Shown: piece by piece, positions 11,721 through 62,319 of the stretch
How positions within the stretch are numbered: position 1 is the stretch's first letter
Layout of the letters: the number at the start of each line of letters is the position of its first letter
Source: Candidatus Poseidoniales archaeon
Lineage (GTDB): Archaea; Thermoplasmatota; Poseidoniia; Poseidoniales; Poseidoniaceae
DNA: 64,000 nt
Assembly (NCBI GenBank): GCA_003602415.1
Contig: QQSK01000013.1
Location: forward strand, 89,929-153,928
Direction of reading: 5' to 3'
Notes under the pieces: model-generated
Databases searched by the model: none
What the model was told of the DNA's origin: nothing
Seen by the model: the letters and a program-made list of their open reading frames with translations, nothing else
Made by a program: the position numbers and the translations under genes

Positions 11721-12656
11721 TTATTGAATTGTGACTTCTGTGTTACCTGCCAGAGTATCTTCCTCTCTTACGCCAAATCTTGTTATCTCGATTTCACAGG
11801 ATACAGAGCAGATGTCAACACCGTTTTCTGTTAGTGTTGCAATTTCCCCTTCTTCCCAAACGGCATAATATACATCCACGCCAGAGAAGGTAATCATACA
11901 GTCAGATTCCCCCCCAGTGTCGCACTGGTGTGTCTGATTATTCACAGTCAATTCTACCCAGAAGCCAAAGTATCCCTCTGAAACATACCAGTCGATTTCT
12001 CCGTGGAACTCATCGATTTCAATAGTCATGAGGTTGTCAGTTACAGATGCAGAAACACTATCCGAATGGTCTTGAGCTAGATATGTTGCATTCCAAGCAT
12101 CGCCAGGGTGTGCTCCGCTTGGGTCTGCGAATACCCAAGTACAGAAATCTGGGTACTCGATTGAAAGGAGAGTAGAGTTAATTGTTTCATTATCTGAAAA
12201 CGCTCCTAGTCTGTGGTATACATGGCATTCAGTAGGTTTATCGTCGTACGATATACCTGCACTAGTTCCATTTTCATCTATCCATTCTTCATAAACTTCC
12301 CCAAGGAACAACAAGTCTCCAACTATGTGGTAATTTGAGTAAATATAGTGCATGACAGACCATTGAGGATAATTCACGTGCTCAATAAGTTCTGAGTTTT
12401 CTGCAGTCCAACAATAACCTGAGATCTGAACATCTTGATAGGAACCAGTTTTTTCTAAGTTAGCATGAATGTGTATTTGGTTAGGTGTCAGGTCGGGGTC
12501 CGTATACTTGGTCCATGTTCCAATCAAATCTTGATCTACAGTACCTCCAGCACATGGCGAGTTCGAACTACTGTTATCTGAATCGTCATCACCTATGCAT
12601 CCAGATAGTGATGCTAGAATCAATGTTGCAATGATTAAACATATTCGCGATTTCAC
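11721..12656 (-). CDS. Secreted acidic lipoprotein-like protein
   Basis: GTG start; ICLIIATLILASLSGC lipobox-like signal; acidic, with Cys pairs. Confidence 0.7.
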   Translation of the reverse strand: MKSRICLIIATLILASLSGCIGDDDSDNSSSNSPCAGGTVDQDLIGTWTKYTDPDLTPNQIHIHANLEKTGSYQDVQISGYCWTAENSELIEHVNYPQWSVMHYIYSNYHIVGDLLFLGEVYEEWIDENGTSAGISYDDKPTECHVYHRLGAFSDNETINSTLLSIEYPDFCTWVFADPSGAHPGDAWNATYLAQDHSDSVSASVTDNLMTIEIDEFHGEIDWYVSEGYFGFWVELTVNNQTHQCDTGGESDCMITFSGVDVYYAVWEEGEIATLTENGVDICSVSCEIEITRFGVREEDTLAGNTEVTIQ

Positions 12657-12862
12657 AGTTTGACGATAACCCTCAGGCTCATAATCATGGTGTAAAATGG
12701 GATAACATTGTTTCAAATGATACAGATAAAACAAAAATCGGGACAAAATTTTAACAAACTGCAAATTTTGCTTTTTTATTGTATAAAATTAACTGTAAAA
12801 TAGTGAAAAAGTAACAAAAAACCGAATATTTGTAATTTATTATGAAATTAAAATAACAAACA

Positions 12863-13131
12863 TGTAGGGGATGTCCGACTCTAAAAATGACTTACTAGAG
12901 GAATTCAAGTCCAAAAATGATAGAAAACACCGAAATCTTTTTACGTGATGGCACCCTCAGGTATCATGCAGCGGAGAAATGGTGGTACCATGCAAATAGG
13001 AATTTTCACTAGGTTGGGTCGACATCGCAGTCGAGTTCGATCTTATGCACACTAACTATTGCCCCTGCAACTTTACAAATTGCCATCTCAATTCGAGATG
13101 TTATAGTCAAAGCGACTACTTGTCGCTAGAC
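12863..13131 (+). ncRNA. Candidate structured RNA upstream of the tRNA pair
   Basis: Long-range pairings TGTAGGGG/CCCCTGCA and GATGTC(C)GACTC/GGGTCGACATC; local hairpins CATCTC/GAGATG and AGCGAC/GTCGCT; strand uncertain. Confidence 0.35.
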
Positions 13132-13143
13132 AATCAAACCAAT

Positions 13144-13215
13144 GGGGGTATGGTGTAGTGGATAGCATAAGTGGCTACGAACCACTTGACCTCGGTTCGA
13201 ATCCGAGTACCCTCG
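13144..13215 (+). tRNA. tRNA-Arg (anticodon ACG)
   Basis: Full cloverleaf: GGGGGTA/TACCCTC, D arm GTGT/GCAT with GGATA loop, AGTGG-CT ACG AA-CCACT, CTCGG-TTCGAAT-CCGAG, G73. Confidence 0.9.
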
Positions 13216-13232
13216 CTGGTTTGATATTCAAT

Positions 13233-13307
13233 CAGGGTATATTGTAGAGGATATCAGGACAGACTGCGAAGTTGTCCACCTGGGTTCGAATCCCAGTACC
13301 CTGGCCA
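13233..13307 (+). tRNA. Atypical tRNA-Arg (anticodon GCG) with encoded CCA; possibly non-canonical or a pseudo-tRNA
   Basis: Perfect acceptor CAGGGTA/TACCCTG + G + CCA; perfect T arm CTGGG-TTCGAAT-CCCAG; weak D stem; A31.G39 mismatch. Confidence 0.7.
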
Positions 13308-13325
13308 ATTCAACAAGGTGATAAT

Positions 13326-13766
13326 ATGAAAATGAAAATAGAAATACAAAACAAAAAACAAGCGTGCAAAATAGACGAAGAGACCGTCTCGATAAACGGA
13401 ATTGGTCCATTTTGTGAACACCCTAGAAAAGAAAATTGCTGGATATACAACGGCAGAATGCCAACTTCAAATTGTTGGATATTCATCAACGGCAACAAAG
13501 TTGAGATTCACAACGTGATAGTGTACAATCCGGCAATCAGGAAATTAGGACATGGCTCAGCTATGATTTCTGATATTAGGAAAGCATTTCCAGAATCTCA
13601 TATTTGGGTAGATACCTGGAATTGCACAAGACCTTTCTGGCAAAAAATGCAACAGCAAGGATTCATTGATTCAATCGCCAATGATTACTCCTGGCCATGT
13701 ATCAACACAACATGTAGGATTTGTCATCCAAACAGAAGCGAATCCAGAAGGAGGGTTTTCCAATGA
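13326..13766 (+). CDS. GNAT-family N-acyltransferase with Cys-rich C-terminus
   Basis: AGGTGA SD; HNVIVYNPAIRKLGHGSAMI (R-x-x-G-x-G motif A), PFWQKM; C-x4-C-x2-C tail. Confidence 0.75.
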   Translation: MKMKIEIQNKKQACKIDEETVSINGIGPFCEHPRKENCWIYNGRMPTSNCWIFINGNKVEIHNVIVYNPAIRKLGHGSAMISDIRKAFPESHIWVDTWNCTRPFWQKMQQQGFIDSIANDYSWPCINTTCRICHPNRSESRRRVFQ

Positions 13767-14527
13767 ATAAGGAGTTTGATGGTTGGGAAAACATGGATTG
13801 GAACATTGAGATTGATACATTAGAATTCGATTTAATGGCAATAAAATCTCACAACAAATCTAATCCGGATGTTGGGAAAAGATGGACAGAGTGGCCTAAA
13901 GACATGATTGGTCTTATGCTTCTGCCGCTGGGATATCAACCCTCAAAATGGGATAAAGAGTCTCCACTGACTGAAAAAGAGGAATCAGATTTGAAGCAGA
14001 AATGGATTGATTTTGCCCAATTCGTCTATGAAAATGAGTCGATATCTCTGAAGGAGAATACATTTACAATTGATGGAAAATACGGCTCTAAGTTCTCTTT
14101 CGATGCGAGTATGGAATTTTCGATTTGGCTTCCACCAAACACTCTGGAAAGATATGGCCCTTCACTTAGAGCCATTAGAAACGGTGCCAGAAGAAAGAGC
14201 AATCTTGGCGTACATATGGAGTACCTAGAAGCATCTCAGGCAACTTGGAAGATAGATACTGGAACGACCGATGACGGGTTAGGATTTTGCGATTTCCCAC
14301 CACACGTCAAAGGTTTAGATCTCAAGCAGTATGAAGGATGGTCAACATTTTTTTATCCTTCTAATACAACATTTCCTGAAAATCTGACCGTTCTGATTGA
14401 TTTGTTGATTACAGATTATCAGATTTGGGAAATTCTGCATGAACAAGAGGTTAAGAGAAGAAAAGCGAATGATGAATGGAATAAGAAATGGCCCAATGGA
14501 AGGCCAGATGATTGGATGTATTTGTGA
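13763..14527 (+). CDS. Hypothetical protein
   Basis: ATGA-coupled to the GNAT gene; 254 codons, Trp-rich. Confidence 0.7.
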   Translation: MNKEFDGWENMDWNIEIDTLEFDLMAIKSHNKSNPDVGKRWTEWPKDMIGLMLLPLGYQPSKWDKESPLTEKEESDLKQKWIDFAQFVYENESISLKENTFTIDGKYGSKFSFDASMEFSIWLPPNTLERYGPSLRAIRNGARRKSNLGVHMEYLEASQATWKIDTGTTDDGLGFCDFPPHVKGLDLKQYEGWSTFFYPSNTTFPENLTVLIDLLITDYQIWEILHEQEVKRRKANDEWNKKWPNGRPDDWMYL

Positions 14528-14537
14528 GGTGAAAAGA

Positions 14538-14762
14538 ATGAGTAAAGAAGAAAATAAGAAAACAAGAGAAGCTGAGAATTTGATAAAATTGATTACGGAT
14601 TTTTTCAAACTTCAAAATCAGTATAACCATTTCAGAATTGAGGAATACAAAGAATGGAATGAGAAAGAATGTGACTGCCCAATATGCGTGGACTACACTG
14701 TTCAATTTTGTGAAGAGGAATCTCCAGACTATTGCGATGGCTTCAGGGAGGAATGGAATTGA
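14538..14762 (+). CDS. Small acidic Cys-rich hypothetical protein
   Basis: GAGGTGA SD; MSKEENKK...CDCPICVDY..C..C; fills the operon gap. Confidence 0.6.
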   Translation: MSKEENKKTREAENLIKLITDFFKLQNQYNHFRIEEYKEWNEKECDCPICVDYTVQFCEEESPDYCDGFREEWN

Positions 14763-15304
14763 TTTCTAATTGGAAGCCAAATGCAAATGCACCATTGTGG
14801 GATGAAGAATCAAATTCTGAACCCAGAGGTCCATTTTTCCAAGAACTTGACATTAAACACATCAAGCAGATTGGACCTTCTTGCGTCCCAACCACATTGG
14901 CAATGCTTGCAAGGAGTACTGGTGCTGATGTAGGTCCTGATGATTTCAAAGGAATAATCAACTCTCAATCACCACACACATGGTCTAACTCATTACATCA
15001 ATACGGGTTACAACTTGCTTACTGTAACCAAGATTTGAGAAGATTGGAGTATTATATTGATGAGTTGGTAGAGCATGATGATTTGTTTCTGTTGTGTTTC
15101 TATTCGGTCGACCCTCCTTCAGACTCTGACATAAATGGCAAGTTATGTACTGCGCATATTGTAACTTTGCACAGAGACAAAATCATTGATACTGCAAAAA
15201 GTGGTAGTTTTGGAGTAAGTATTGCTGAGGATTATCCCAGACTATCTAGGCAGACAAAGAGGATATTCAGAGTGGTGCCTTTTGGTCACCCTAGGAGAGT
15301 TTAG
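14753..15304 (+). CDS. Papain-fold C39-like cysteine peptidase
   Basis: KQIGPSCVPTTLAML (Q-x4-C) ... AHIVTL ... IIDT; Cys-His-Asp order. Confidence 0.6.
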   Translation: MELISNWKPNANAPLWDEESNSEPRGPFFQELDIKHIKQIGPSCVPTTLAMLARSTGADVGPDDFKGIINSQSPHTWSNSLHQYGLQLAYCNQDLRRLEYYIDELVEHDDLFLLCFYSVDPPSDSDINGKLCTAHIVTLHRDKIIDTAKSGSFGVSIAEDYPRLSRQTKRIFRVVPFGHPRRV

Positions 15305-15312
15305 GTGATTTT

Positions 15313-16629
15313 ATGATGTGGAAAAATGGAGACCTATTTCCTTCAGTACCTTTTCCTAAGGTAGAGGATAGACCACTACTAGTATATCATCCAGCGCCGG
15401 ATATGAATTATGTTAATTCATGGTCAATAATGGTTGAAAACGATCAACCATTCATCCTATTTTGCGATGATATGGGGCCTAGATATCCCGATGATTTACC
15501 ATTCTTGGAAACTAGCTTGAGGATGGAATATTTTGCTAGAATTGCTAATCCATTAATTGGTGGTAGGGCATACAGGCACCCAGAACTTGGTTATCAGAAC
15601 ATGTTGGTTCAAAGGCAGAAAGATGCAAATTTGGGAATTGAGGATTTACCTTTGCTCGATATCCTATATGTCGATTGGCTTGAGCCCTTCATCGAAAAGA
15701 GAGGTAGGAATTCTTATTCTGATATTATTCCTAAACTCGCTACACACGTAAGGGATGGCGGATTGATTATACTGGACAGAAAACATGCAGAAACAATTCC
15801 AGAATGGTTCACTTATTCACAAATCATTCTTAGCACAAAAAAGGATGTCTGCATTGAGCATATTGGTAGAGGAGAATGGTTGATTCCATATGTTGATTTG
15901 GAGAATGTTAGAGATGTGGAGGCTGAAATCTTCGTTGTAAAAAACTTGAATCAAGAAAAAAAGAACATGGACGATTTTCTCGCCTCTTTGATGCATGAAA
16001 GGAGATTGAAGCCTAATGAATTATTGAAAACAAGAAACAAATTACCTCTAAGGTGGCCCGGTCATCCCGATAAGGATTCATGGATGGAGAGATACATGGA
16101 ATACTTGGATAGACCAGAGTCCGGTGAACCATACTTGCCTTGTCCATACAATAATTCCTGGTCATACAAGGAATACACCACTTGGGTCCAGTCATTGATT
16201 GATAGGCCGGAAGTACTGAGGCCGATTCCAAGAAAAGAAAGAACGCTTGATTTGGGCATCAAAGTAACATTGGTTCACGGTGATATTAGGGATCACCTTG
16301 ACTGGTTATATGTTGAAGATGCCAGCTTAATTCTTAGAGAGAAATTGATGAGTGATTGTTTGTCTAATTGGTGTTGGCTTCAATACAAAGCTGTAGACTT
16401 GCAACCCAAGTGGAATAGGCCGTTAATCACCAAACTGAAATGGTCGGGCAAGAATTCAACTTCAAATCTGACATTGAAACTTTTAGATTTAGCAAAGAGT
16501 TCAGTAGTTGCTACTATCGTTCATGGAGATGGGAGTTTGAAGCAACTGAAAAGGCAGTTAAAGAAATATCAAGGAGAAGTAGAACATCTAATCATTTTTC
16601 ACAAAGATGCTAGCGACTATTCAGATTAA
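15313..16629 (+). CDS. Hypothetical protein, possibly with a methyltransferase-like N-terminal fold
   Basis: AGGTGA SD; LDILYVD...LATHVRDGGLIILD resembles class I MTase motifs; VTLVHGDI near the C-terminus. Confidence 0.55.
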   Translation: MMWKNGDLFPSVPFPKVEDRPLLVYHPAPDMNYVNSWSIMVENDQPFILFCDDMGPRYPDDLPFLETSLRMEYFARIANPLIGGRAYRHPELGYQNMLVQRQKDANLGIEDLPLLDILYVDWLEPFIEKRGRNSYSDIIPKLATHVRDGGLIILDRKHAETIPEWFTYSQIILSTKKDVCIEHIGRGEWLIPYVDLENVRDVEAEIFVVKNLNQEKKNMDDFLASLMHERRLKPNELLKTRNKLPLRWPGHPDKDSWMERYMEYLDRPESGEPYLPCPYNNSWSYKEYTTWVQSLIDRPEVLRPIPRKERTLDLGIKVTLVHGDIRDHLDWLYVEDASLILREKLMSDCLSNWCWLQYKAVDLQPKWNRPLITKLKWSGKNSTSNLTLKLLDLAKSSVVATIVHGDGSLKQLKRQLKKYQGEVEHLIIFHKDASDYSD

Positions 16630-18973: not shown

Positions 18974-20137
18974 TCATGCAGTTGCGCCAATACCGGTAGC
19001 AAGTTGACGAGGAGTCAATGGCTTATCTTCAATCCACTGCTGCTTGAATATTTCTTTCAGTGCCTCTTCGTCTTCAGGTGTTGGAAGAACAGTCTTCAGA
19101 TATTCTGAATATTCTTCATCAGTCCCTTCGAATAGTGACCCGTCGGTGTAACAGTTCTTGCCTCCGAAAGCACCGATATCTCGGTGGAAGTTTTCGTGAG
19201 GAACAAATAGTTCGACACCACATCCTTCTGGAAGGTATCCGTTCAACTTCTCAACCTCTTTGACGATTTCATCGTGGTAATGTCCACGACTTTCTTCATT
19301 CAGAACTTCTTTGTTGACTTCGATATCAGCATCTAGCTTCTTTCTTTCATCCCAACGTCCCTTTACTCCCCAGACATATGCCCAGTGAGCAGAGGTAGAG
19401 GAATCAGTACCAAACAAATCGTGTGCTGTAGCAACCCACTTGTTCATGTATCGTTGTAGCATATCAAGTGGAATAACTCCTGCTTTGATGATTCTGCGCA
19501 ATCCGTTTGAACCGGTTCCAAGGTGGAAAGATTCCTCCTTGAGCATAGGGCCCATAGATGCAGCCAATGGCTTGAATGCAGATGTGGAAAGCATTCCTAA
19601 CTGGAATTTACCGTCACGGTCTACGAACATGGTGTAGCAGAAGAAGTCTAACCAATGTGGCATAGGCCTGTTGAATGCGCCAAGAAGACGATCTCCATCC
19701 TGAGCATTTCGCTCTAGTAACTTCTGAGCCTCACGTCGTCCCTGCTGTCCAAAATATGTCATCAATAGATACGCCATTTGCCATCCATGTCTCTGTTCTT
19801 CAGCCATGATTCTAGCAGCTGCATATCTGTCGTAATCAGATGGTGCGGTTTCGAGTAAGTGCTTCTGTTGTTCTACGGATGCGAATTCAGTGTCTCCTTG
19901 CACGGTGATCATTGAGACCAATGCATCACGGATGTTTTGGTGAGGTACTTGTAACGCTCTTTCCCACTTTGCACGACCGGAATAATCTCCGAATTCAATA
20001 ACGTCGCCAGCACGGTCCCAATCAAACAGAATAGATAGGTCGAAATCGCCTAACCATTCTCGGTTGAAACCAACTCTGTCTTGCCAATCGCTGAAGTTGT
20101 TTACCCAGTCGTCCCATGTCTTTGGTAGTTCTGCCAT
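18974..20137 (-). CDS. boxB: Benzoyl-CoA epoxidase subunit B-like di-iron protein
   Basis: QGDTEFASVEQQ, EEQRH, FVDRDGKFQL, EESFH; two ExxH di-iron motifs in BoxB-like context. Confidence 0.8.
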   Translation of the reverse strand: MAELPKTWDDWVNNFSDWQDRVGFNREWLGDFDLSILFDWDRAGDVIEFGDYSGRAKWERALQVPHQNIRDALVSMITVQGDTEFASVEQQKHLLETAPSDYDRYAAARIMAEEQRHGWQMAYLLMTYFGQQGRREAQKLLERNAQDGDRLLGAFNRPMPHWLDFFCYTMFVDRDGKFQLGMLSTSAFKPLAASMGPMLKEESFHLGTGSNGLRRIIKAGVIPLDMLQRYMNKWVATAHDLFGTDSSTSAHWAYVWGVKGRWDERKKLDADIEVNKEVLNEESRGHYHDEIVKEVEKLNGYLPEGCGVELFVPHENFHRDIGAFGGKNCYTDGSLFEGTDEEYSEYLKTVLPTPEDEEALKEIFKQQWIEDKPLTPRQLATGIGATA

Positions 20138-52547: not shown

Positions 52548-53342
52548 ATGCTTGGTTTACAAGGTAAAGTTGCATTCGTTTTTGGCGTGGCCAGTGAAGA
52601 CTCAATTGCATGGGCTATTTGCAAAAGTTTAGCCGATGCAGGAGTCACTCTGTATCTGGGATATCAGAAGAGATTCATGTCTCGTGTATTCCAATTGAAA
52701 GACAAACTGCCAGCCATTGCGGGATTCTATCCATTGGATGTTGCAAACGATGCGGACACCAAAGAATTCTTCGATGCATTCGGCAAAGAGAATCCCGGCA
52801 TGAAAGCTGACATCTTGATTCATGCTATCGGTTTTGCACCACGAGAATGTTTTGATAGGCCGATATTATTCGTTGATGATGAAAGTATCAATACTGCATA
52901 CACAATTTCTGCAAACTCATTGCAACGTTGCCTAAAATTCGCATTACCTTATCTAAATCCTGGCTCATCAACAATCACTCTAACCTATGCGGCTTCTACA
53001 AGGCACGTCCCTTCCTATGGAATCATGAGTATGGCAAAAGCAGCACTAGAATGCTGGACTAGAGAATTAGCTTGTCATCTTGGGCCTGAAGGACACCGAG
53101 TCAATGCGATATCTAGTGGGCCGATTAGAACGATTGCTGCTAGCGGTATTCCTGGGTTTGACAACATCCTTGACCATGTTGCTGCCAATTCGCCACTGCG
53201 TCGAAATGTTACACAAACAGATGTTGCAGGATGCACAACATGGTTGGCAAGCCCTCTGTCATCTGGTGTGACTGGACAATGTATACACGTCGATGCTGGA
53301 TATTCGATCACTATGGTTCCTCCAAGCATTATGGGTGAGTGA
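52548..53342 (+). CDS. fabI: Enoyl-ACP reductase
   Basis: GVASEDSIAWAI, HAIGFAP, Y-GIMSMA-K (Yx6K), RVNAISSGPIRT. Confidence 0.92.
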   Translation: MLGLQGKVAFVFGVASEDSIAWAICKSLADAGVTLYLGYQKRFMSRVFQLKDKLPAIAGFYPLDVANDADTKEFFDAFGKENPGMKADILIHAIGFAPRECFDRPILFVDDESINTAYTISANSLQRCLKFALPYLNPGSSTITLTYAASTRHVPSYGIMSMAKAALECWTRELACHLGPEGHRVNAISSGPIRTIAASGIPGFDNILDHVAANSPLRRNVTQTDVAGCTTWLASPLSSGVTGQCIHVDAGYSITMVPPSIMGE

Positions 53343-53346
53343 AAAA

Positions 53347-56300
53347 ATGACAATCACTACGACAAACGGTAAGCAAGTCGATGGCCTAAATCAGGCTCCT
53401 TTCGAGCCTGTTGCGGTTATTGGAATGGCTGCATTGATGCCAGATGCCACTTCAATGGAAGAGTTTTGGCAGAATATTATCGATGCGCATGTCTCTATCA
53501 AAGAGGTATCCAAAGATAGATGGGACCCAGATATCTATTGGGAGAATGGGGCTCCAGGCAACGTTACCGAAGGCAAGACATATTCTAAAATCGGAGGATT
53601 CGTAGAAGACTATGAGTTCGATTGGCGAAGGTGGAGGCAACCTCCAGGTACTCTTCCACAAATCGACCCATGTCAACTTTGGGCGGTAACCGTATCAGCA
53701 GATGCAATCGATGATGCAGGATACGGAGAAGGTGGGAAAACACTGGACAGAGCAAGGACTGGAGTCATTTTCGCTAATGCTTTAGGGGGGGAAAATCGCT
53801 CAGAATCAAACATCAGAATTTTTAGTTCTGAAATGAGGAAGATTGCTCTAGATAACGGAGCAACTCCAGAACAAGCAGATGCGATGGTAGAGAAAATGTG
53901 CGAGGGCAAACCTCGTATCGATGAAGATACAATGCCAGGAGAATTGGCTAATGTAGTCAGTGGGAGAGTTGCAAATCTTCTAGATCTGCAAGGTCCAAAT
54001 TATTCCACAGATGCGGCTTGTGCTTCGTCTATGGCTGCACTTCTAGACGCATGTAGACTTCTACAAACACGCCAGGTAGACACAATGCTAGCAGGTGCAA
54101 CAGACCGTTGCATGGAAGCTCCGACCTACGCTAAGTTTAGCGCAATCGGCGCACTTTCTCCAAGCCACTCTACTCCTTTCGATGCCCGTGCTAATGGATT
54201 CGTTATGGGTGAAGGAGCAGGTGTTCTTCTTCTCAAGAGATTGTCTGATGCAATCGATGCCGGTGACGACATCAAAGCAGTAATTCGCGGAGTAGGTGGT
54301 TCTTCGGATGGTAGAGGGAAAGGGATAACCGCTCCTAGTCAAAGAGGGCAAGTCCAAGCGGTAAGTCGAGCATATTCACAAGCGGGTTACGAGCCTTCAA
54401 CAGTAGAGTTAGTCGAAGCGCATGGTACTTCAACCAAGGTTGGTGATGCAACGGAATTGTCGACATTGTCTCTATTGTGGACAGGCTTGGATGGGGGAGA
54501 CCACATCGCAGTGGGTTCAGTCAAGAGTCAAATTGGGCATCTGAAAGCGGCTGCAGGAATTGCTGGAATCATGAAAGCATGTAATTCAGTATATCACAAG
54601 ACAATACCTCCTAGTGCAGGGTTCCAAACTCCAAACCCAACGGTTGAATGGGACGAGATACCATTTTTCGTACCAACAGAAGCTAGAGACTGGCCAGAGC
54701 CAGAATCTCACCCACGTAGGGCAGGAATCTCAGCATTCGGCTTCGGTGGAACAAATTTCCACGTAGCAGTTGAGGGCTATGACCTCGAATATCACTCCAA
54801 ATTAGTAGAACACTGGAATGGGAGATGGGAAGCATATGCAGGAATCGAATCTTCTTCATCTGAAGCCAAACCAACTATGACGCACGAGGAGTTGAAGGCT
54901 GTTGAAGGCGGATTACTACTATTGTCTGGTGACTCGATAGATTCTCTCAAGTCAAAATTGAGTGCACTTACATTCTCTGGTCCAAACTTTGACGATGATC
55001 CACGAGGCATGCGTCTATCATTTACTCTAGACTCTCACTGGTCTTTCGATGTTAAAGACACAGTCAGAATGGCTTTGTCAGCCACCAGTTGGGCTGAGTT
55101 TAACAAACGTAAGGACTTGGCAATCAAGGCTATGGATGACAAGGAGAAATGGGGCTTTTTGATGAGTCAAGGCATCATGATTAGCGATACTCCTGCACTG
55201 CCTAAACAAGCAAAAGTCGCACACATGTATCCTGGTCAAGGAAGCCAATATGTTGGTATGACCAACGACTTACATTCTCGTTTCAGTGGCGTAGGCGATG
55301 TTTGGGACAAGGCTGATGTTACCATGGTCGATGTTTTGGATGGAGAGACATTGTCTTCTTTCGTACTTCGTGATGGATTAACCGCTGAAGAAATGAAAGA
55401 GGCTGAGCACAAACTCAAGCAGACTGAATATACTCAACCCGCAATGTTGACAGCAGATTTAGCAATTGAAGCGGCACTGAATGCTCACGGACATAAGCCA
55501 GATATGGTGGCTGGGCACAGTTTAGGAGAATATGCAGCACTAATGAGTGCAGGTATTCTTGACATGGATGGTGCATTGAGAGCGGCAGCAGCTCGTGGTA
55601 CTGAAATGGGTAGTGTCGAAATTGATGACAAAGGCTTGATGGCTAGTGTAACCGCACCTTACGATAGAATCGCAGAGATTATCGAAGAAGTGGACGGTTA
55701 TGTCATTGCAGCAAATAAAAACTCACCGAAGATGACGGTAATCGCTGGAGAAACCGAACCCGTAAAGCAAGCAATGTCACGCTTTGAGGCTGAAGGTTTC
55801 CAGTGTGTTGCATTAGCAACAAGCCACGCATTCCATTCTCGAATCGTTGCACCTGCAAACGAACCACTTCGCAGATTCTTAGAAGGGCTGGACATTAGAT
55901 GGCCAAAAATCCCGATCACCAGCAACGTTGACGGCGGGTGGTATCCAATGGATGATGGCGGCGATTCAAAGGCAGCAATACTATCCAAACTTGCACCTCA
56001 AATGGCATCAAGTGTTGAATGGACTTCGCAGATAAATTCGATGTATGATGCAGGAGCACGATTATTCCTAGAAGTAGGACCTAAGCGTGCACTCACAGTA
56101 TTCGCATCACAAATCCTTGAAGGCAAACAAGCCCTTCCAATAATGACAAATCACCCTAAGGCCGGAGGAATTGCAACGTTCCTTACCGCTTTAGGAACGC
56201 TAGCTCTTGCTGGAAGAGTTCCCGAATGGCCTGGCCCTAACAGCGCTCACTTAACTCCAGCATTCCGTGCAGGACCTATCGAGGCAGCAGGCGGAGCCAA

Positions 56301-59300
56301 GCAGCCTGCAACTCCTCTGAAGGAGAGAAGCAGGCCATTGCCATCAAAGGGTGGCCAAACAGTTACTCAAACCGTCATCCAATCGAGTGAAACATACGTT
56401 GATCCCGATGCAGCAAAGAAGGCATTAGTGGGCGAGTTAATCGCTGCACAGACTGGATATCCTGCAAAATTCTGTCAAGGTAATGTCGACATGAGAGCGG
56501 TTCTTGGTATGAGCGATGAGCAAATCCAAGTCGTAGTATCTTCAGTTCATGCAAGGTGTAGTACTGACCCCGATTGGGACATTACGATAGCAAAAACTCC
56601 TGGAGATATCACTAGATGGATAACTTCAGCACCAGCAATTGGCTCCAAGTCCAAGTCGATGAAACACGATGATAGAGATGACGACCCGTTCGTAATCACG
56701 GGTATTTCAATGGGCCTTCCTGGTGGAGAAAGAGTGTTTGATGAAGGTAATTTCGAGAAATTGGTGAGGGGTGAAACTTGTATCACCGAAGTGACCGACG
56801 AATACAAACAACGCCTTCTAGACAAAAATATCGTACGTCTAATAAAAGGAAGAGACGGCAGTGTCGGAATGGATGCTGCTACTGAATTTGGAGATATACC
56901 TCAATTAGCTGGAGTGAAATCCGCTTTCGATCCTACAGAAGAGTTCGGAATCGATGCCAAAGTCGCAGCAGCTTGGGATATTGCAACTCAGTTATCTTGT
57001 GCGGCTGGATTAATCGCATTGAAAGATGCAGGTATTCCATTAACTCCTGTGGAACAGGTTGGTAAAGGTGGATTGAGATTGATTCGTTCTTGGCAAATGC
57101 CATCCGCTTACAGAGATAGAACTGGAATAGTATTCGCATCTTGCTTCGCAGGCCATCAAATGGCTGCAAGGCATGCTAAGGTCAATGGAGACGATGGTGA
57201 GGGAAGATTCGACAGAAGATATCTTTTCCAAATATTGAATATGGGCCATTCACAATTCGCTCAGCATGTTGGAATTAGAGGTCCGAATACCACAATTAAC
57301 CTAGCATGTGCTTCTGCAACTGCAGCATTCGGCGTCGCAGAAGATTGGCTTGCCAACGATAGATGTGACCGTGTAGTCATAATCTCTGCAGATGATGTAA
57401 CGGGAGACGACCTATGGGAATGGATTGGTTCAGGTTTCGCTGCCAGCGGAGCTGCAGCAACCAATAACTCGGTTGAAGAAACCGCATTACCTTTCGACAA
57501 GAGGCGCAATGGTTTGATTCTGGGAATGGGTGCAGCAGCATTCGTAGTCGAACGAAAATCAGAATCCGACGCTAGAGGAGTTCAGCCGATGGCTGAGTTA
57601 TTGGGAACTAGAATTGCAAATTCCGCATTCCATGGAACTCGATTGGACGTTGAGCATGTCGCTAGTACCGTTGATGATTTCGTTTCTGAAATGGAAGAAA
57701 GATGGGGATTAGACAGACACCAAATGGCTCCTGATACCGTGTTCTTTTCCCATGAAACATATACTCCTGCTCGTGGAGGTTCAGCTCAGGCTGAAGTCAA
57801 GGCCCTCAGAGACACATTTGGTGCTAGTACGGATTCAATAGTCATTGCAAACACCAAAGGTTTCACAGGACATCCAATGGGTGTAGGAATTGAAGATGCT
57901 GCCATGTTCTATGGTTTAATGACCGGCAGAATACCGCCAATCGCCAATCACAAAGAAACAGATCCAGAACTTGGAAATCTGAAATTATCCAAGGGGGGAG
58001 ATTATTCCAATCTGAAGTATGGAATGAGATTTGCAGCAGGGTTTGGAAGTCAAATCGGTTTGTCATTAGTTCGAAAGTGTGAATTCACAGGAGATAGAAT
58101 CAACAAACAAAAACTGCTGACCTGGAACCAATCTCAGGCAGGAACTACCAATTTAGAATTAAGAGTATTACAAAACAAACTGGTTGCATATGTTGATGCA
58201 GACAACAATTTACACGGCGGAATTCTAGGAGATGAATACGCAGTACCACGAGAAATAGATAGCATCGAGGCTCCAGTAATCGAATCTAGTCCTGCTCCAA
58301 AACCAGAACCTGTGGCTCCAGCACCTGCTGAACCAACTCCTGTTGCGTCGGCGCCTTCAGGTGATACGACTTCTATCGTAATCGAAGTCGTAGTCAAGCA
58401 CACAGGATATCCTGCTGACTTTGTAGAGTTAGACCAAGACCTAGAAGGTCAACTTGGAATAGATACTGTCAAGCAAGCAGAAATAATGGCAGATATCAGA
58501 GAAAAATTCGGTTTACCTATCGATGAAGACTTCGTACTTTCAGATTATCCAACACTGAATCATATGATCGCCTACATCCACAAGATGCAGGGAGGAAGTC
58601 CTGCTCCTGTTGCACCAAAAACAGTAACTGAAGTTTCAACTCCAGAACCAGTTCCAAAAGCAGAACCAGCACCTGCGCCAGCACCAGTTGCTAGCGAGCA
58701 ATCTTCAGCAGTAGATATTCAGCCGAAATTAATCGGAGTAGTGGTCAAGCACACAGGCTATCCCGAAGATTTCATCGAAATGGACCAAGACCTTGAAGGA
58801 GAATTGGGAATCGATACGGTCAAGCAAGCCGAAATCATGGGTGATGTAAGAGAAATTTTCTCATTACCTATCGATGAAGACTTCGTTCTATCCGAGCACC
58901 CTACTCTGAACCACTTCGTAGCCTACATTCAGAAGATGACAGGCGGAAACGCTCCAGTGCCTACTCCAGCACCGGTCGAGACGACAAGTCCAGCCGCTCC
59001 AACGCCTGTTGAAGTTCCAGCAACTCCAACGGTTTCAGCAGATAGCGGAGACATTCAGCCGAAATTAATCGGTGTAGTGGTCAAGCATACAGGCTATCCT
59101 GAAGATTTCATCGAAATGGACCAAGACCTAGAAGGAGAATTAGGAATTGATACGGTTAAACAAGCCGAAATCATGGGTGACGTAAGAGAAATTTTCTCAT
59201 TACCAGTGGATGAAGACTTCGTTCTATCCGATCACCCTACTCTGAATCACTTCGTAGCCTATATTCAGAGAATGACAGGCGGAAGCACTCCGGCATCTAC

Positions 59301-62300
59301 TCCAGCACCAGCGCCGGTTGAAGTGAAAAGTCCAGTTGCTCCAACACCTGTTGAAGCTCCAACAACTCCAACGGTTTCAGCAGATAGCGGAGAAATACAA
59401 GTGAAATTAATCGGTGTAGTGGTCAAGCATACAGGCTACCCAGACGACTTCATTGAAATGGACCAAGACCTAGAAGGCGAACTAGGAATCGATACGGTCA
59501 AGCAAGCCGAAATCATGGGTGACGTAAGAGAAATTTTCTCATTACCAGTGGATGAAGACTTCGTTCTATCCGACCACCCTACTCTGAACCACTTCGTAGC
59601 CTACATTCAGAAGATGAAAGGAGGAGGTGCACCAGCGCCAGCGCCAGTTGCGAAACCAGTTCCACAACCAGTTGCACCTCAGCCAGTGCCTTCAACACCT
59701 GTTAGCAATTCCAAGCCAATAGCCGAATCTACCACAAGACGATGGCAGGTAGAGGTCGAACCATGCCCTGCAGTAGCCGAAGGTCTTCCAATTGGAGGAA
59801 CAATCGTGCTAACACAGGATAGCTGGGGCGTAGCAGATGCTTTGGCAGATAGGCTAGTCGAAAAGGGCCTATCTGTAGCGAAGATTGGATTCGAATTCGG
59901 TGCTAAATCAGTTACTGAACAAGAGGAGTTGTCGGGTCATACCTTCAGAGCAGACCCAGGTAGTGAAGAGCAAATCGCCGAGGTTTGCTCTAGAATTTCA
60001 GGTGTTGCTGGAATCATCCACTTAGCACCACTTTCCCTAACCGGAAGTTCTTGGGAAGCCGATGGTCCATCAAATCAGGTGAATCTTGCAGCACAATCTT
60101 GGTTTGGATTACTGAAAGGCTTAGATTCACAATTAGGAGTAATCTCCTCAGGCATTGTTGGTAGTGTAACCGCTTTGGATGGAAGACATGGAAATAGGGG
60201 CGAGCGATTCAATTCACTTGCTTGCGCAGCAAGTGGAGTGACCAAGTCCTATGCCTTTGAGAGGGAAAACCTCAGATGTCGTGCACTTGATTTACACCCT
60301 GAATTGATTATTGATGCAGCATCAGCAGCAGAAGTAATCGACAACGATTTATTCACCGCAGGCGGAGAAATCGAAATAGGAATCGACAGAGATGGCCGAA
60401 GATGGACGATGGTCTGTTTCGCAGAAGATGTCGTTGAAGATGTTGAACCATTACAATCCGATGATTTGTGGTTGGTCAGTGGTGGTGGCTCTGGAGTAAC
60501 AGCAGCATCAATAATCGGTGTATCAAGCGCTAGTAACGGCGCTGGTGCGACATTCCTACTACTTGGTAGAAGCAAACTCGTTGAAGAAACATCGGGATGG
60601 TTGGATTGGAGCGATGACCAACTCAATCAGAGGAAGATGGAACTTAGAGAATCATTGATCGCCGAATCTGAATCTGGAAAAGTGACAATGGTGGAATGGA
60701 ATAATGCTTGGACTAAATTAACTCGAAGTATGGATATTTATCGAACGATAAGCGATATCGAAGCAAGTGGAAACAATGCAGAGTACCACTCAGCAGATGT
60801 TACCGATTCTGAAGCGATTAAGTCCGCAGTCAATGGAAGAGATGTAACCGGTATCGTTCACGGTGCAGGTCTTGAAGAATCTAAACTGGTAGCAGACAAA
60901 GCATGGAACACATTCGACTTGATTGTTAGAGTCAAGGTCGATGGATGGAAAGCATTAGCCTCTGCTGCAGGAGATTCTCTACGGTTTGCCTGTGCGTTCA
61001 CAAGCGTAGCGGGTAGATTTGGAAATCGTGGTCAAACAGATTATGCAGCGGCCAACTCAATTTTGGACGCAGAAATGGCTCGCATGACAGCTAACTCTGA
61101 ATGCAGAGCGGTTGCTATTGGATGGACAGGATGGAGAGATGTTGGAATGGCAACTCGCGGCTCGATAGAAGCGGTGTTTGAGTCATCTGGAATTGAGACA
61201 TTGTCTGTTGAAGATGGTGTCGAGATATTCGTCAAAGAAGCATTAGCAGGCGGCAAAAGAAGAGTTCTAGGCTGCGGCTCATTAGGAAATATGGACCTAT
61301 TCGATTCATTTAGAGAAGCGCCTTTGAAATTACCTGCAGAAATGGCTGCATCGATTGCAGACCCTCGCAGATTCCCTCTTATCGACAAACTCTTGTCTAT
61401 TGAGGAAGGCGAATCCTTAGTATCTCAGTGTACTCTTTCAATGCAAGAACATCCATTCTTGGTAGATCATGCAATCGATGGAGTTCCTTACCACCCAGGC
61501 GTAATGGCGTTGGAGATGTTTGCAGAAAACTCTCTACTGCTGATGCCAAGTCATTGTTTAGCAGGTTTCGAAGAAGTCACATTTGGTTTACCTGTCAAGA
61601 TAATGAAAGGCGATATGACTGTTAGAGTTGAAGCAACATTATCCAGAACCGATGGTGACTTGTCTTGGGTAAAATGCCGCTTAGTTTCAGATTTGACTAA
61701 TTCAAAGGGTGAAGTATTCGGTGAACCAAGATTACATCACGAAGCGATGGTACGACTGGTTGCAACATCAGATGACCTTCGCCCATTCTTACAAAATGAA
61801 GTTGACTCCTTACCAGCAATAGGAACTCCACCTCATGGTGATTTACTACATCACTCTAGTTTCATCTATCTGAGATATTTCCACGGCCCAAGGTTCCAAT
61901 CTCATGGCGGAGTTCTACGTGGCGTTGAAAACGGCGTAGACGGTATTGCACTGATGCGCCACCAACTGCCTGCAACCGACCAATTTGCATTGGAAAGCGA
62001 TGGTGAAGAAGTTCTGTTGGATGCTCTACCAATGCTAATCGAAGCAGGTTTCCAAAATGCTGGATTGGCAGCCATGGAAAGCGATGGATTCTCGAGTCTA
62101 CCTATTGGAATCGAGTGGACTACAATGTTGCGAGTTCCCGATGCAAACGAATCTTTGCGAATGCGTTCAGTCAAAGTTGCTACCGAGGATGCGGGAATAA
62201 CTGTACACGATGTGGTAATCGTTGGAGAAGATGATGCTCCTGTTCTATCGCTCAAGGGTCTACGACTCAAAGCGATGGGCCAAGTGCCTGAAGATCAGAG

Positions 62301-62319
62301 ATTCAGTCTTGAGAGGTGA
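53347..62319 (+). CDS. Type I PKS / PfaA-like fatty acid synthase: KS-AT-(ACP-like)-KS-ACPx4-KR-DH
   Basis: KS1 DAACASS/EAHGT/GHL; AT GHSLG, HAFHS; KS2 NLACAS/SHET/GHP; 4x LGIDTVKQAEI; KR GGGSGVT, YAAAN; DH HAIDGVPYHP. Confidence 0.93.
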   Translation: MTITTTNGKQVDGLNQAPFEPVAVIGMAALMPDATSMEEFWQNIIDAHVSIKEVSKDRWDPDIYWENGAPGNVTEGKTYSKIGGFVEDYEFDWRRWRQPPGTLPQIDPCQLWAVTVSADAIDDAGYGEGGKTLDRARTGVIFANALGGENRSESNIRIFSSEMRKIALDNGATPEQADAMVEKMCEGKPRIDEDTMPGELANVVSGRVANLLDLQGPNYSTDAACASSMAALLDACRLLQTRQVDTMLAGATDRCMEAPTYAKFSAIGALSPSHSTPFDARANGFVMGEGAGVLLLKRLSDAIDAGDDIKAVIRGVGGSSDGRGKGITAPSQRGQVQAVSRAYSQAGYEPSTVELVEAHGTSTKVGDATELSTLSLLWTGLDGGDHIAVGSVKSQIGHLKAAAGIAGIMKACNSVYHKTIPPSAGFQTPNPTVEWDEIPFFVPTEARDWPEPESHPRRAGISAFGFGGTNFHVAVEGYDLEYHSKLVEHWNGRWEAYAGIESSSSEAKPTMTHEELKAVEGGLLLLSGDSIDSLKSKLSALTFSGPNFDDDPRGMRLSFTLDSHWSFDVKDTVRMALSATSWAEFNKRKDLAIKAMDDKEKWGFLMSQGIMISDTPALPKQAKVAHMYPGQGSQYVGMTNDLHSRFSGVGDVWDKADVTMVDVLDGETLSSFVLRDGLTAEEMKEAEHKLKQTEYTQPAMLTADLAIEAALNAHGHKPDMVAGHSLGEYAALMSAGILDMDGALRAAAARGTEMGSVEIDDKGLMASVTAPYDRIAEIIEEVDGYVIAANKNSPKMTVIAGETEPVKQAMSRFEAEGFQCVALATSHAFHSRIVAPANEPLRRFLEGLDIRWPKIPITSNVDGGWYPMDDGGDSKAAILSKLAPQMASSVEWTSQINSMYDAGARLFLEVGPKRALTVFASQILEGKQALPIMTNHPKAGGIATFLTALGTLALAGRVPEWPGPNSAHLTPAFRAGPIEAAGGAKQPATPLKERSRPLPSKGGQTVTQTVIQSSETYVDPDAAKKALVGELIAAQTGYPAKFCQGNVDMRAVLGMSDEQIQVVVSSVHARCSTDPDWDITIAKTPGDITRWITSAPAIGSKSKSMKHDDRDDDPFVITGISMGLPGGERVFDEGNFEKLVRGETCITEVTDEYKQRLLDKNIVRLIKGRDGSVGMDAATEFGDIPQLAGVKSAFDPTEEFGIDAKVAAAWDIATQLSCAAGLIALKDAGIPLTPVEQVGKGGLRLIRSWQMPSAYRDRTGIVFASCFAGHQMAARHAKVNGDDGEGRFDRRYLFQILNMGHSQFAQHVGIRGPNTTINLACASATAAFGVAEDWLANDRCDRVVIISADDVTGDDLWEWIGSGFAASGAAATNNSVEETALPFDKRRNGLILGMGAAAFVVERKSESDARGVQPMAELLGTRIANSAFHGTRLDVEHVASTVDDFVSEMEERWGLDRHQMAPDTVFFSHETYTPARGGSAQAEVKALRDTFGASTDSIVIANTKGFTGHPMGVGIEDAAMFYGLMTGRIPPIANHKETDPELGNLKLSKGGDYSNLKYGMRFAAGFGSQIGLSLVRKCEFTGDRINKQKLLTWNQSQAGTTNLELRVLQNKLVAYVDADNNLHGGILGDEYAVPREIDSIEAPVIESSPAPKPEPVAPAPAEPTPVASAPSGDTTSIVIEVVVKHTGYPADFVELDQDLEGQLGIDTVKQAEIMADIREKFGLPIDEDFVLSDYPTLNHMIAYIHKMQGGSPAPVAPKTVTEVSTPEPVPKAEPAPAPAPVASEQSSAVDIQPKLIGVVVKHTGYPEDFIEMDQDLEGELGIDTVKQAEIMGDVREIFSLPIDEDFVLSEHPTLNHFVAYIQKMTGGNAPVPTPAPVETTSPAAPTPVEVPATPTVSADSGDIQPKLIGVVVKHTGYPEDFIEMDQDLEGELGIDTVKQAEIMGDVREIFSLPVDEDFVLSDHPTLNHFVAYIQRMTGGSTPASTPAPAPVEVKSPVAPTPVEAPTTPTVSADSGEIQVKLIGVVVKHTGYPDDFIEMDQDLEGELGIDTVKQAEIMGDVREIFSLPVDEDFVLSDHPTLNHFVAYIQKMKGGGAPAPAPVAKPVPQPVAPQPVPSTPVSNSKPIAESTTRRWQVEVEPCPAVAEGLPIGGTIVLTQDSWGVADALADRLVEKGLSVAKIGFEFGAKSVTEQEELSGHTFRADPGSEEQIAEVCSRISGVAGIIHLAPLSLTGSSWEADGPSNQVNLAAQSWFGLLKGLDSQLGVISSGIVGSVTALDGRHGNRGERFNSLACAASGVTKSYAFERENLRCRALDLHPELIIDAASAAEVIDNDLFTAGGEIEIGIDRDGRRWTMVCFAEDVVEDVEPLQSDDLWLVSGGGSGVTAASIIGVSSASNGAGATFLLLGRSKLVEETSGWLDWSDDQLNQRKMELRESLIAESESGKVTMVEWNNAWTKLTRSMDIYRTISDIEASGNNAEYHSADVTDSEAIKSAVNGRDVTGIVHGAGLEESKLVADKAWNTFDLIVRVKVDGWKALASAAGDSLRFACAFTSVAGRFGNRGQTDYAAANSILDAEMARMTANSECRAVAIGWTGWRDVGMATRGSIEAVFESSGIETLSVEDGVEIFVKEALAGGKRRVLGCGSLGNMDLFDSFREAPLKLPAEMAASIADPRRFPLIDKLLSIEEGESLVSQCTLSMQEHPFLVDHAIDGVPYHPGVMALEMFAENSLLLMPSHCLAGFEEVTFGLPVKIMKGDMTVRVEATLSRTDGDLSWVKCRLVSDLTNSKGEVFGEPRLHHEAMVRLVATSDDLRPFLQNEVDSLPAIGTPPHGDLLHHSSFIYLRYFHGPRFQSHGGVLRGVENGVDGIALMRHQLPATDQFALESDGEEVLLDALPMLIEAGFQNAGLAAMESDGFSSLPIGIEWTTMLRVPDANESLRMRSVKVATEDAGITVHDVVIVGEDDAPVLSLKGLRLKAMGQVPEDQRFSLER
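58370..59620 (+). repeat. Four tandem intragenic ACP repeats (about 340 bp period)
   Basis: Near-identical repeats; Thr codons at 58465, 58816, 59152 and 59494, separated by Pro/Ala/Thr linkers. Confidence 0.9.

Follow-up and report, generated by a model that had tools for sequence, protein, structure and literature searches.

What is the role of a group of protein-coding genes that lies directly behind two spare arginine tRNA genes and avoids the CGN codons of arginine (N, any base) altogether? The question is raised by a locus in a 64,000-nt stretch, here called the window, of contig QQSK01000013.1 from the genome of a Candidatus Poseidoniales archaeon (assembly GCA_003602415.1). As a preliminary description of this DNA had claimed, the locus comprises tRNA genes, two tRNA-Arg in all, and five co-oriented, coupled open reading frames (ORFs; o1–o5), and the start codon of o1, the gene for a GNAT-fold protein, lies 18 nt past the CCA of the second tRNA. 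Two decisive features were overlooked in that description, namely a CGN-rich leader ahead of the tRNAs and five genes that lack CGN entirely. The operon is real, conserved, and undescribed in the literature searched. It is probably an accessory operon of Marine Group II (MGII) archaea that serves as a sensor-and-rescue circuit for lost CGN decoding, and there is about an even chance that the trigger of this circuit is a toxin or virus that disables the tRNA-Arg(NCG) of the host.

The CGN gap, the CGN-rich leader and the spare tRNAs

The 60 arginine codons of o1–o5 consist of 36 AGA and 24 AGG, with no CGN at all, against a genome-wide CGN share of 44.1% of arginine codons (binomial probability, ~7 × 10−16). 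Genes with at least eight arginine codons but no CGN number 4 of 1233 in the genome, and these four are o1, o2, o4 and o5. No comparable gap was found in any other codon family of the five genes, and an m1G37-type effect on other C-starting codons was rejected. The dinucleotide CG is kept in these genes at codon positions 2–3 (20 occurrences) and 3–1 (42 occurrences) and is absent only at positions 1–2; thus, avoidance of CpG in the DNA was ruled out as the cause of the CGN gap.

The same gap is found in related loci, where CGN accounts for 64 of the 4830 arginine codons of the genes behind the tRNAs (the cargo), broken copies included, and is absent from 414 of the 445 distinct gene stretches. 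Where the flanks could be scored, 50 of 2472 cargo arginine codons were CGN, compared with 3961 of 5802 in the flanking genes. The G+C content at third codon positions (GC3) of the cargo ranges from 0.26 to 0.77, following that of the host, GC-rich hosts included, while CGN stays near zero. A natural control is provided by locus L139 (G250:C25): the lone o4 gene found there, the single tRNA-less o4 of the set and also devoid of a leader, has 7 CGN among 12 arginine codons, that is, o4 has regained CGN apart from the tRNAs.

The leader of the window carries its CGN codons (CGA, CGC, CGA and CGA) within codons 11–17, and a conserved ORF with a Shine–Dalgarno (SD) motif and an ATG start is seen in the regions upstream of the tRNAs across relatives. 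Under a rule blind to arginine, an SD–ATG ORF was present in 90 of 91 distinct upstream regions. With the most downstream such ORF of at least 14 codons taken as the leader, all of the 77 distinct leaders contain at least two CGN codons, and 71 contain at least three. In total, 322 of the 1702 in-frame leader codons are CGN, whereas just 72 are found among the 3404 codons of the two remaining frames, and the same 322 codons make up most of the 404 arginine codons of the leaders. The leader peptides, 14–32 codons long across loci, vary widely, and it is thus the codons that are conserved. Folding prediction for 76 spacers between leader and tRNA gave a median z of −2.4 relative to base shuffles.

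Separate housekeeping tRNA-Arg genes with the anticodons GCG, TCG, TCT and CCT are found elsewhere in the genome, so that both operon tRNAs are spare copies. The anticodon ACG of the first spare tRNA, which is unusual for archaea, occurs in 17 cases among relatives, and TCG in 59. Of 140 distinct spare tRNAs, 138 retain the arginine identity base A20, and pairing in the acceptor and T stems is good. The spare tRNA with the GCG anticodon has a 31–39 mismatch in 16 of 64 cases and a base other than A at position 38 in 19 of 64, compared with A38 in all 141 housekeeping tRNA-Arg rows (hand count). With the anticodon loop excluded, the bodies of 107 of 132 spare tRNAs resemble the tRNA-Arg(UCU) of this genome more than its NCG tRNAs, with a mean identity of 64–65% versus 54–58%, a modest comparison with references from one genome only. 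The spare tRNAs share just 55–58% identity with the NCG copies of the host and move along with the unit.

Several loci depart from this arrangement. In L138 (G040), a tRNA-Ile(GAT) precedes the tRNA-Arg, and the leader holds two isoleucine codons and three CGC; a tRNA-like stretch similar by eye to this tRNA-Ile occurs in L232 (G407). Here, the unit may have acquired another codon class. A second tRNA-Arg(TCG) is found inside the operon in L143 and L144, directly before o5 and ~1.3 kb downstream of the o4 start. The second tRNA has decayed in L042 (5822–5910) and L043 (806–878), showing the anticodon GTG and broken stems behind a first tRNA with ACG, and an unmodified A34 might cover the whole CGN box there. 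In L208 (G006:C14), a second, lone tRNA-Arg(ACG) and a leader-like ORF are followed by CGN-rich genes, one of them weakly o5-like by eye. The housekeeping tRNA-Arg(NCG) genes across the order comprise several TCG and GCG alleles that are mixed within genera, several of them at contig ends, which may reflect replacement or integration events. In many loci, the tRNA region is an open frame, and o1 has often been called through the upstream tRNA genes, giving database products of 169–241 amino acids (aa), as in P0001, P0044, P0059 and others.

A fixed leader–tRNA core with exchangeable cargo

Among 401 Poseidoniales genomes, 99 have o4; a search of 45 genomes from two further families of the class did not detect it. 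Gene o1 was found in 14 of 61 genomes. In total, 120 o4 loci were examined, of which 27 were dropped because their contigs were too short upstream; 92 of the 93 assessable loci have a tRNA-Arg within 3 kb upstream. In all 15 o1 loci a tRNA-Arg lies directly upstream. The linkage of tRNA and operon is thus far beyond chance, and the genes are not the random pile-up of cassettes that had been set beforehand as the refuting outcome. A search with a tRNA pattern reached 130 of 401 genomes, some housekeeping CCG matches included.

Among the 92 tRNA-linked o4 loci, o2 is present in 82, o5 in 68 (a count that may be low, as contig ends can hide this gene) and o1 in 50. The tRNAs together with o4 were considered as a fixed core, which was dropped when tRNA-led fetching gave loci without o4 (L210, L211, L227–L229 and others). 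Loci without o1, without o3 or without o2 beside the tRNAs also exist, and therefore no cargo protein is universal. The fixed core consists of the leader and the tRNA, with one or two tRNA-Arg and rarely one tRNA-Ile per unit, while the GNAT, the C39-fold protease, the methyltransferase-like protein and the small genes are exchangeable cargo. About 21 upstream contexts were counted among 76 loci (some genomes being counted twice), the site occupied in the window is empty in a congener (L271), and broken copies persist (L026, L029, L145).

Predicted structures and structure comparison agree with the earlier assignments of o1 to GNAT and of o4 to C39-like proteins. The o1 protein has an R-x-x-G-x-G motif (coenzyme A (CoA)-binding) and a conserved C-terminal Cys/His cluster. 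Its predicted structure (predicted local distance difference test score, pLDDT, 78) is a small GNAT nearest to RibT, PanZ and similar proteins (best Z, 7.4), and 14 of 35 homologs match Acetyltransf_7; only 33 representatives were reached by the o1 profile. The preliminary description had pointed to the aminoacyl-tRNA-acetylating toxins TacT/AtaT and to the transferases Fem, Aat and Ate1, which have a tandem or extended GNAT fold and take aminoacyl-tRNA instead of acyl-CoA. Like these, the o1 protein has a GNAT fold, and its gene lies beside tRNA genes. However, none of these structures is among the matches listed for o1, which consists of one small CoA-type domain and is dispensable in the unit, and no gene for a ribbon–helix–helix antitoxin lies upstream of o1, the tRNAs and the leader being directly upstream in 15 of 15 loci.

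The predicted structure of o4 (pLDDT, 88) has the C39/papain fold, and its top fold matches are C39 double-glycine peptidases, including the peptidase domain of a peptidase-containing ATP-binding-cassette (ABC) transporter (PCAT; Z, 11.0; root mean square deviation, 2.9; 126 aligned residues). Acyl-enzyme relatives (Alr0975, CtaG) and papain-fold toxins (9L5U, 8SSM) are also among the fold matches. Residues Gln40, Cys45, His136 and Asp147 (numbered from 14750) are invariant. This fold and the Gln-Cys-His-Asp residues are shared with the C39 peptidases of PCAT and ABC transporter maturation and secretion (AMS) transporters and of clusters for ribosomally synthesized and post-translationally modified peptides (RiPPs). 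Unlike these peptidases, o4 stands alone, with no ABC transporter, fused or among the cargo, and no double-glycine precursor; the homologs listed have 177–197 aa, longer fused forms being outside the length range searched.

The most common cargo is o2, which occurs in 1–3 diverged copies per locus, diverges fast and has a median pI of 4.5. No usable match to it was found in the ESM Atlas, and a match to Rpo13 (E-value, 0.05) was treated as chance; a resemblance to DUF4132-type tails is conceivable. In the o3 alignment, only M1, F69 and W73 are invariant, with no conserved Gly-Gly or cysteine; at least two cysteines are found in 36 of the 77 distinct ORFs directly upstream of o4, and o3 is missing at 22 of 116 o4 loci by the rule used. 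The likeness of o5 to class I S-adenosylmethionine (SAM) methyltransferases, proposed earlier for the protein, is weak and confined to the N-terminal half, with glycine N-methyltransferase matches at E-values of 0.3–2 and leads in the ESM Atlas at 0.86–0.87. Most Atlas matches of o5 are unnamed clusters, and a supposed likeness of the C-terminal half to macro domains gained no support from a single-sequence PDB search.

The proposed sense-and-rescue circuit and its alternatives

The CGN purge points to a frequent event that knocks out CGN decoding. A leader that would be slow only when CGN is poorly decoded, tRNAs that would restore this decoding and cargo whose translation would not depend on it share one circuit logic. 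Ribosomes would stall on the CGN cluster of the leader when charged tRNA-Arg(NCG) is scarce, and the stall would let transcription or processing continue into the tRNAs and the cargo, probably because the spacer is shielded from factor-dependent termination; control of tRNA processing is a further guess. The spare tRNAs, on a body that is not that of the host NCG tRNAs, would restore CGN reading and switch the operon off again. The cargo, which would be translatable with tRNA-Arg(UCU/CCU) alone, would neutralise the cause, with o2 and o3 perhaps acting by binding, o4 by cleavage, o1 by acetylation and o5 by methylation. The operon would turn on, and not off, upon stalling, because the CGN purge would otherwise be pointless.

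However, several observations weigh against this reading. The loci are kin, so the locus counts given above are not counts of independent events, and some tRNA-linked loci leak CGN (L028, 7/20; L138, 5/22; L141, 8/40). A37 is also present in 14 of the 141 housekeeping tRNA-Arg rows (hand count), and the variability of the anticodon arm of the GCG spare tRNA could reflect relaxed selection. No terminator-like site was found in the window, where the spacer has no U-tract; a run of four T occurs in just 26 of 77 spacers, and the consensus hairpin predicted where the leader carries its CGN cluster is weak and shows no compensatory change. The on-or-off direction of the control is one that we infer, and the evidence singles out no trigger or attacker. 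The functions of the cargo are proposals only, as none of o1–o5 gave a match above cut-off in family scans of Pfam, NCBIfam, PHROGs and PADLOC 2.0 (library from 2023); likewise, 15 further cargo proteins had nothing above the Pfam cut-off.

As to the trigger, a specific agent is favoured over arginine hunger because the cargo is not poor in arginine (o1, 6.9%; o4, 5.3%; o5, 4.8%; o2, 3.1%; compared with 4.7%), the gene for arginyl-tRNA synthetase (ArgRS) is not insulated (14 CGN, 15 AGR; R, A or G), and the unit is modular, mobile and found in a patchy set of genomes. The copy number and fast divergence of o2, the variable anticodon arm of the GCG tRNA and the UCU-like tRNA bodies are further sequence features that suggest such an agent. 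An anticodon-specific ADP-ribosylating toxin has reportedly been described in PMC13617354, so that codon-specific tRNA poisons exist.

In the alternative that survives best, the circuit is the same and its trigger is arginine shortage or an inhibitor of ArgRS. The NCG isoacceptors would become uncharged first and the leader would stall, NCG tRNAs on a better-charged body would rebalance decoding, and o4 and o1 would free arginine from peptides or detoxify a mimic of the arginine adenylate. Bacteria and mammalian cells are known to show isoacceptor-selective loss of charging and pausing at CGY codons (Y, C or T) when arginine is limiting, and the pairing of a GNAT with a peptidase recalls the self-immunity to microcin C (MccE, MccF). 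The resemblance of the spare tRNA bodies to tRNA-Arg(UCU) would agree with this alternative, and argG was not found in the host genome (1.89 Mb, 89% complete); its apparent lack fits arginine limitation and counts against a specific agent. Arginine shortage is thus a possible trigger, albeit a doubtful one: besides the arginine content of the cargo, all non-operon genes with at least eight arginine codons keep CGN, as does the ArgRS gene, there is no transporter or arginine-pathway gene among the cargo families, and a patchy, mobile and fast-diverging cargo is unlike a nutrient regulon.

It is unlikely that the operon is itself the attacker, in which a cargo protein would block CGN decoding as an addiction module or as an abortive defence against CGN-rich viruses. 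CGN-free coding would then keep the cargo expressed, the tRNAs would be an antidote or faulty decoders, and the leader would provide feedback. The papain-fold toxins among the o4 matches, the frequently flawed anticodon stem of the GCG tRNA and the CGN-rich genes of putative MGII viruses (see below) are in line with this possibility, as are the CreT RNA toxins, which, according to PMC8501985, sequester a tRNA-Arg via a mini-ORF. On the other hand, no cargo gene is universal, and therefore no single toxin explains all of the loci; CGN, at 44% of arginine codons, is not a rare-codon pool; broken copies persist, and o4 occurs alone at L139.

Viral sequences were considered in a set of 25 contigs that have a thermosome relative and whose MGII hosts are deduced; Poseidoniales viruses with thermosomes are described in PMC11706807. 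A tRNA-Arg(UCU) adjoins the thermosome gene in 12 of these 25 putative MGII-virus loci, which include L252–L261 and L267–L270; this association speaks for a specific agent rather than hunger as the trigger. The viral genes use CGN for 43–90% of arginine, and a virus that destroyed NCG tRNAs would thus harm itself, which argues against a viral trigger. So does the composition of the 111 viral tRNA-Arg matches to the D-arm pattern of the spare tRNAs, 95 of which are TCT and 11 NCG, with D-arm likeness built into the search pattern. Two weak partial matches to o1 were the cargo detected in the viral contigs; o4 was found in none of them, and no cargo lay near the viral tRNA-Arg loci. These data suggest that arginine tRNAs matter in the conflict between MGII archaea and viruses; who attacks what stays undecided by them. 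One type of viral tRNA-Arg(TCT) shares the short D-loop of the spare tRNAs, and another resembles the tRNA-Arg(TCT) of the host.

A more tentative proposal, held at less than even confidence, is that the sense-and-rescue circuit represents a new class, in which CGN would be the monitored part of the arginine code and AGA/AGG the safe part, within an arms race over arginine tRNAs between MGII archaea and their viruses that carry tRNA-Arg. The leader would signal that tRNA-Arg(NCG) is under attack, tRNAs with a shifted anticodon on a UCU-type body would take the place of the decoders lost, and a modular set of uncharacterised enzymes, encoded without CGN, would counter the attacker.

The preliminary description had seen in the locus either a tRNA-dependent peptide-modification system or a defence or toxin system with its own tRNAs. 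A conserved, undescribed, tRNA-linked operon is indeed present, and the half of that interpretation that sees a defence or stress system with its own tRNAs may be right, whereas the peptide-modification half found no support. A RiPP reading fails because the o3 cysteines are not conserved; moreover, o3 is missing at some o4 loci and the GNAT is present at only 50 of 92. In the peptide-modification interpretation, Arg-tRNAs would act as donors, o3 would be the precursor, o4 a leader peptidase or arginine transacylase, and o1 and o5 tailoring enzymes. The C39 double-glycine peptidases, Alr0975 and CtaG among the o4 fold matches and the retention of A20 are compatible with this interpretation. 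It is nonetheless very improbable, as a donor role needs neither NCG anticodons nor a CGN-rich leader, o3 has neither conserved cysteines nor a Gly-Gly site, no transporter is present, and tRNA and leader loci exist without o1, o3 or o4. A decayed island, with the codon use of an AGR-only donor and tRNAs as integration scars, would suit the patchy distribution over many sites and the slightly lower GC content (0.385–0.41 vs. 0.43), but is hardly credible and largely refuted, because GC3 tracks the host without a gain of CGN, and also in view of tRNAs that differ from those of the host and travel with the unit and of an adjacent leader rich in CGN.

Leader-peptide attenuators such as trpL, hisL and pheL/pheM are bacterial, and stall-sensing leaders include tnaC, speFL and mgtL. 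By analogy, the unit may be said to work like a leader-peptide attenuator joined to an inducible spare-tRNA operon. As in attenuators, a short SD-led ORF with clustered cognate codons precedes, at the level of sequence, an operon that would relieve the shortage. Unlike in attenuators, the host is an archaeon, one codon box rather than one amino acid would be sensed, the product is the tRNA itself, and the codons to be sensed have been cleared from the genes that follow; at the unit, no intrinsic terminator with a U-tract and competing antiterminator was found. Phage tRNAs with altered anticodon loops have reportedly been proposed, in PMC10264068 and PMC11555353, as replacements for those attacked by tRNA-targeting defences. 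In contrast to such phage tRNAs, the present unit is chromosomal in the host and also comprises a putative sensor leader and protein cargo insulated from CGN, and no attacker is singled out.

According to PMC8421152, the Anabaena trn operon provides supernumerary, laterally spread tRNAs that serve under translational stress, and is a long array of 23 functional tRNAs under a repressor. The Poseidoniales unit is no array of many tRNA species; it joins no more than two Arg(NCG) tRNAs, sometimes one, to a leader that matches their codons and to cargo insulated from these codons. CreTA of haloarchaea, as described in PMC8501985, likewise has an archaeal mini-ORF with an SD motif and clustered arginine codons that is relieved by the cognate tRNA. 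CreT, however, is just 4–6 codons long, has a tandem pair of rare codons (AGA/AUA) and is under repression by CRISPR-Cas, whereas the present leaders have ~20 codons with common CGN codons and the tRNA is encoded in cis. No creA or cas gene was seen beside the unit, cas genes not having been searched genome-wide.

The attenuator, RiPP, TacT-type, CreTA and long-array families are thus each defined by a feature that was looked for in the unit and is lacking there. No description of the system was found in the literature, with subscription journals and supplements outside the search. No paper turned up on Poseidoniales and tRNA-Arg, on papain/C39 and aminoacyl-tRNA neighbourhoods or on anticodon nuclease and codon avoidance, and what was listed on other topics was general or analogous work only. 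In about one quarter of the sampled genomes of an archaeal group that ranks among the most abundant in the ocean, selection has been strong enough to clear an operon of an entire codon box. The unit makes translation-sensing control in archaea accessible to testing, ties four uncharacterised protein families to tRNA stress and allows a screen for similar circuits, in which genes free of one codon box would be sought next to the cognate tRNAs and a leader rich in these codons. If the circuit is real, an archaeal tRNA operon would here be seen under ribosome-stall control for the first time.

Layout and surroundings of the locus

The features of the unit are listed in Table 1. The stop codon of o3 overlaps the start of o4. 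The AGGTGA SD motifs noted earlier precede o1, o3 and o5, while AGGAGG or GGGAGG is found ahead of o2 and o4.

Table 1. Features of the tRNA-led unit (positions in the window)
Feature	Position	Strand	Remarks
TATA-like box, predicted promoter of the unit	12938..12944	+	T-run/TA motif at a similar place in relatives (by eye)
Leader ORF, 21 codons with SD, predicted CGN-decoding sensor	12990..13055	+	4 CGN and 1 AGG
Untranslated spacer, three short predicted hairpins, no U-tract	13056..13143	+	folding prediction
Spare tRNA-Arg, anticodon ACG, A20, A37	13144..13216	+	Rfam, 60.6 bits
Spare tRNA-Arg, anticodon GCG, encoded CCA, A31–G39 anticodon-stem mismatch	13233..13307	+	Rfam, 45.9 bits
o1, 146 aa, single-domain GNAT acyltransferase fold, dispensable cargo	13326..13766	+	0 CGN of 10 Arg
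o2, 254 aa, acidic, Trp-rich, matching no known family	13763..14527	+	0 CGN of 9 Arg
o3, 74 aa, small protein, conserved C-terminal F-x-x-x-W	14538..14762	+	0 CGN of 3 Arg
o4, 183 aa, predicted stand-alone C39/papain-fold cysteine hydrolase or transacylase	14753..15304	+	0 CGN of 11 Arg
o5, 438 aa, N-terminal half weakly class I SAM methyltransferase-like, C-terminal half unassigned	15313..16629	+	0 CGN of 27 Arg

No integrase was noticed by eye among the ORFs flanking the unit, in keeping with the earlier remark, and no search with integrase families was made. RNA runs gave just short contig pieces in o2, o4 and the end of o5, which are possibly DNA. A lipoprotein-like gene (11721–12764, − strand) is divergent from the operon, and other genes replace it at this site in congeners. 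Further away in the window are a gene that we take to be a BoxB-like ring-cleavage gene (18974–20137, − strand) and an ORF of 3008 aa (53293–62319, + strand), the start of which is presumably ketosynthase-like by its motif, as in a polyketide or polyunsaturated fatty acid (PUFA) synthase.

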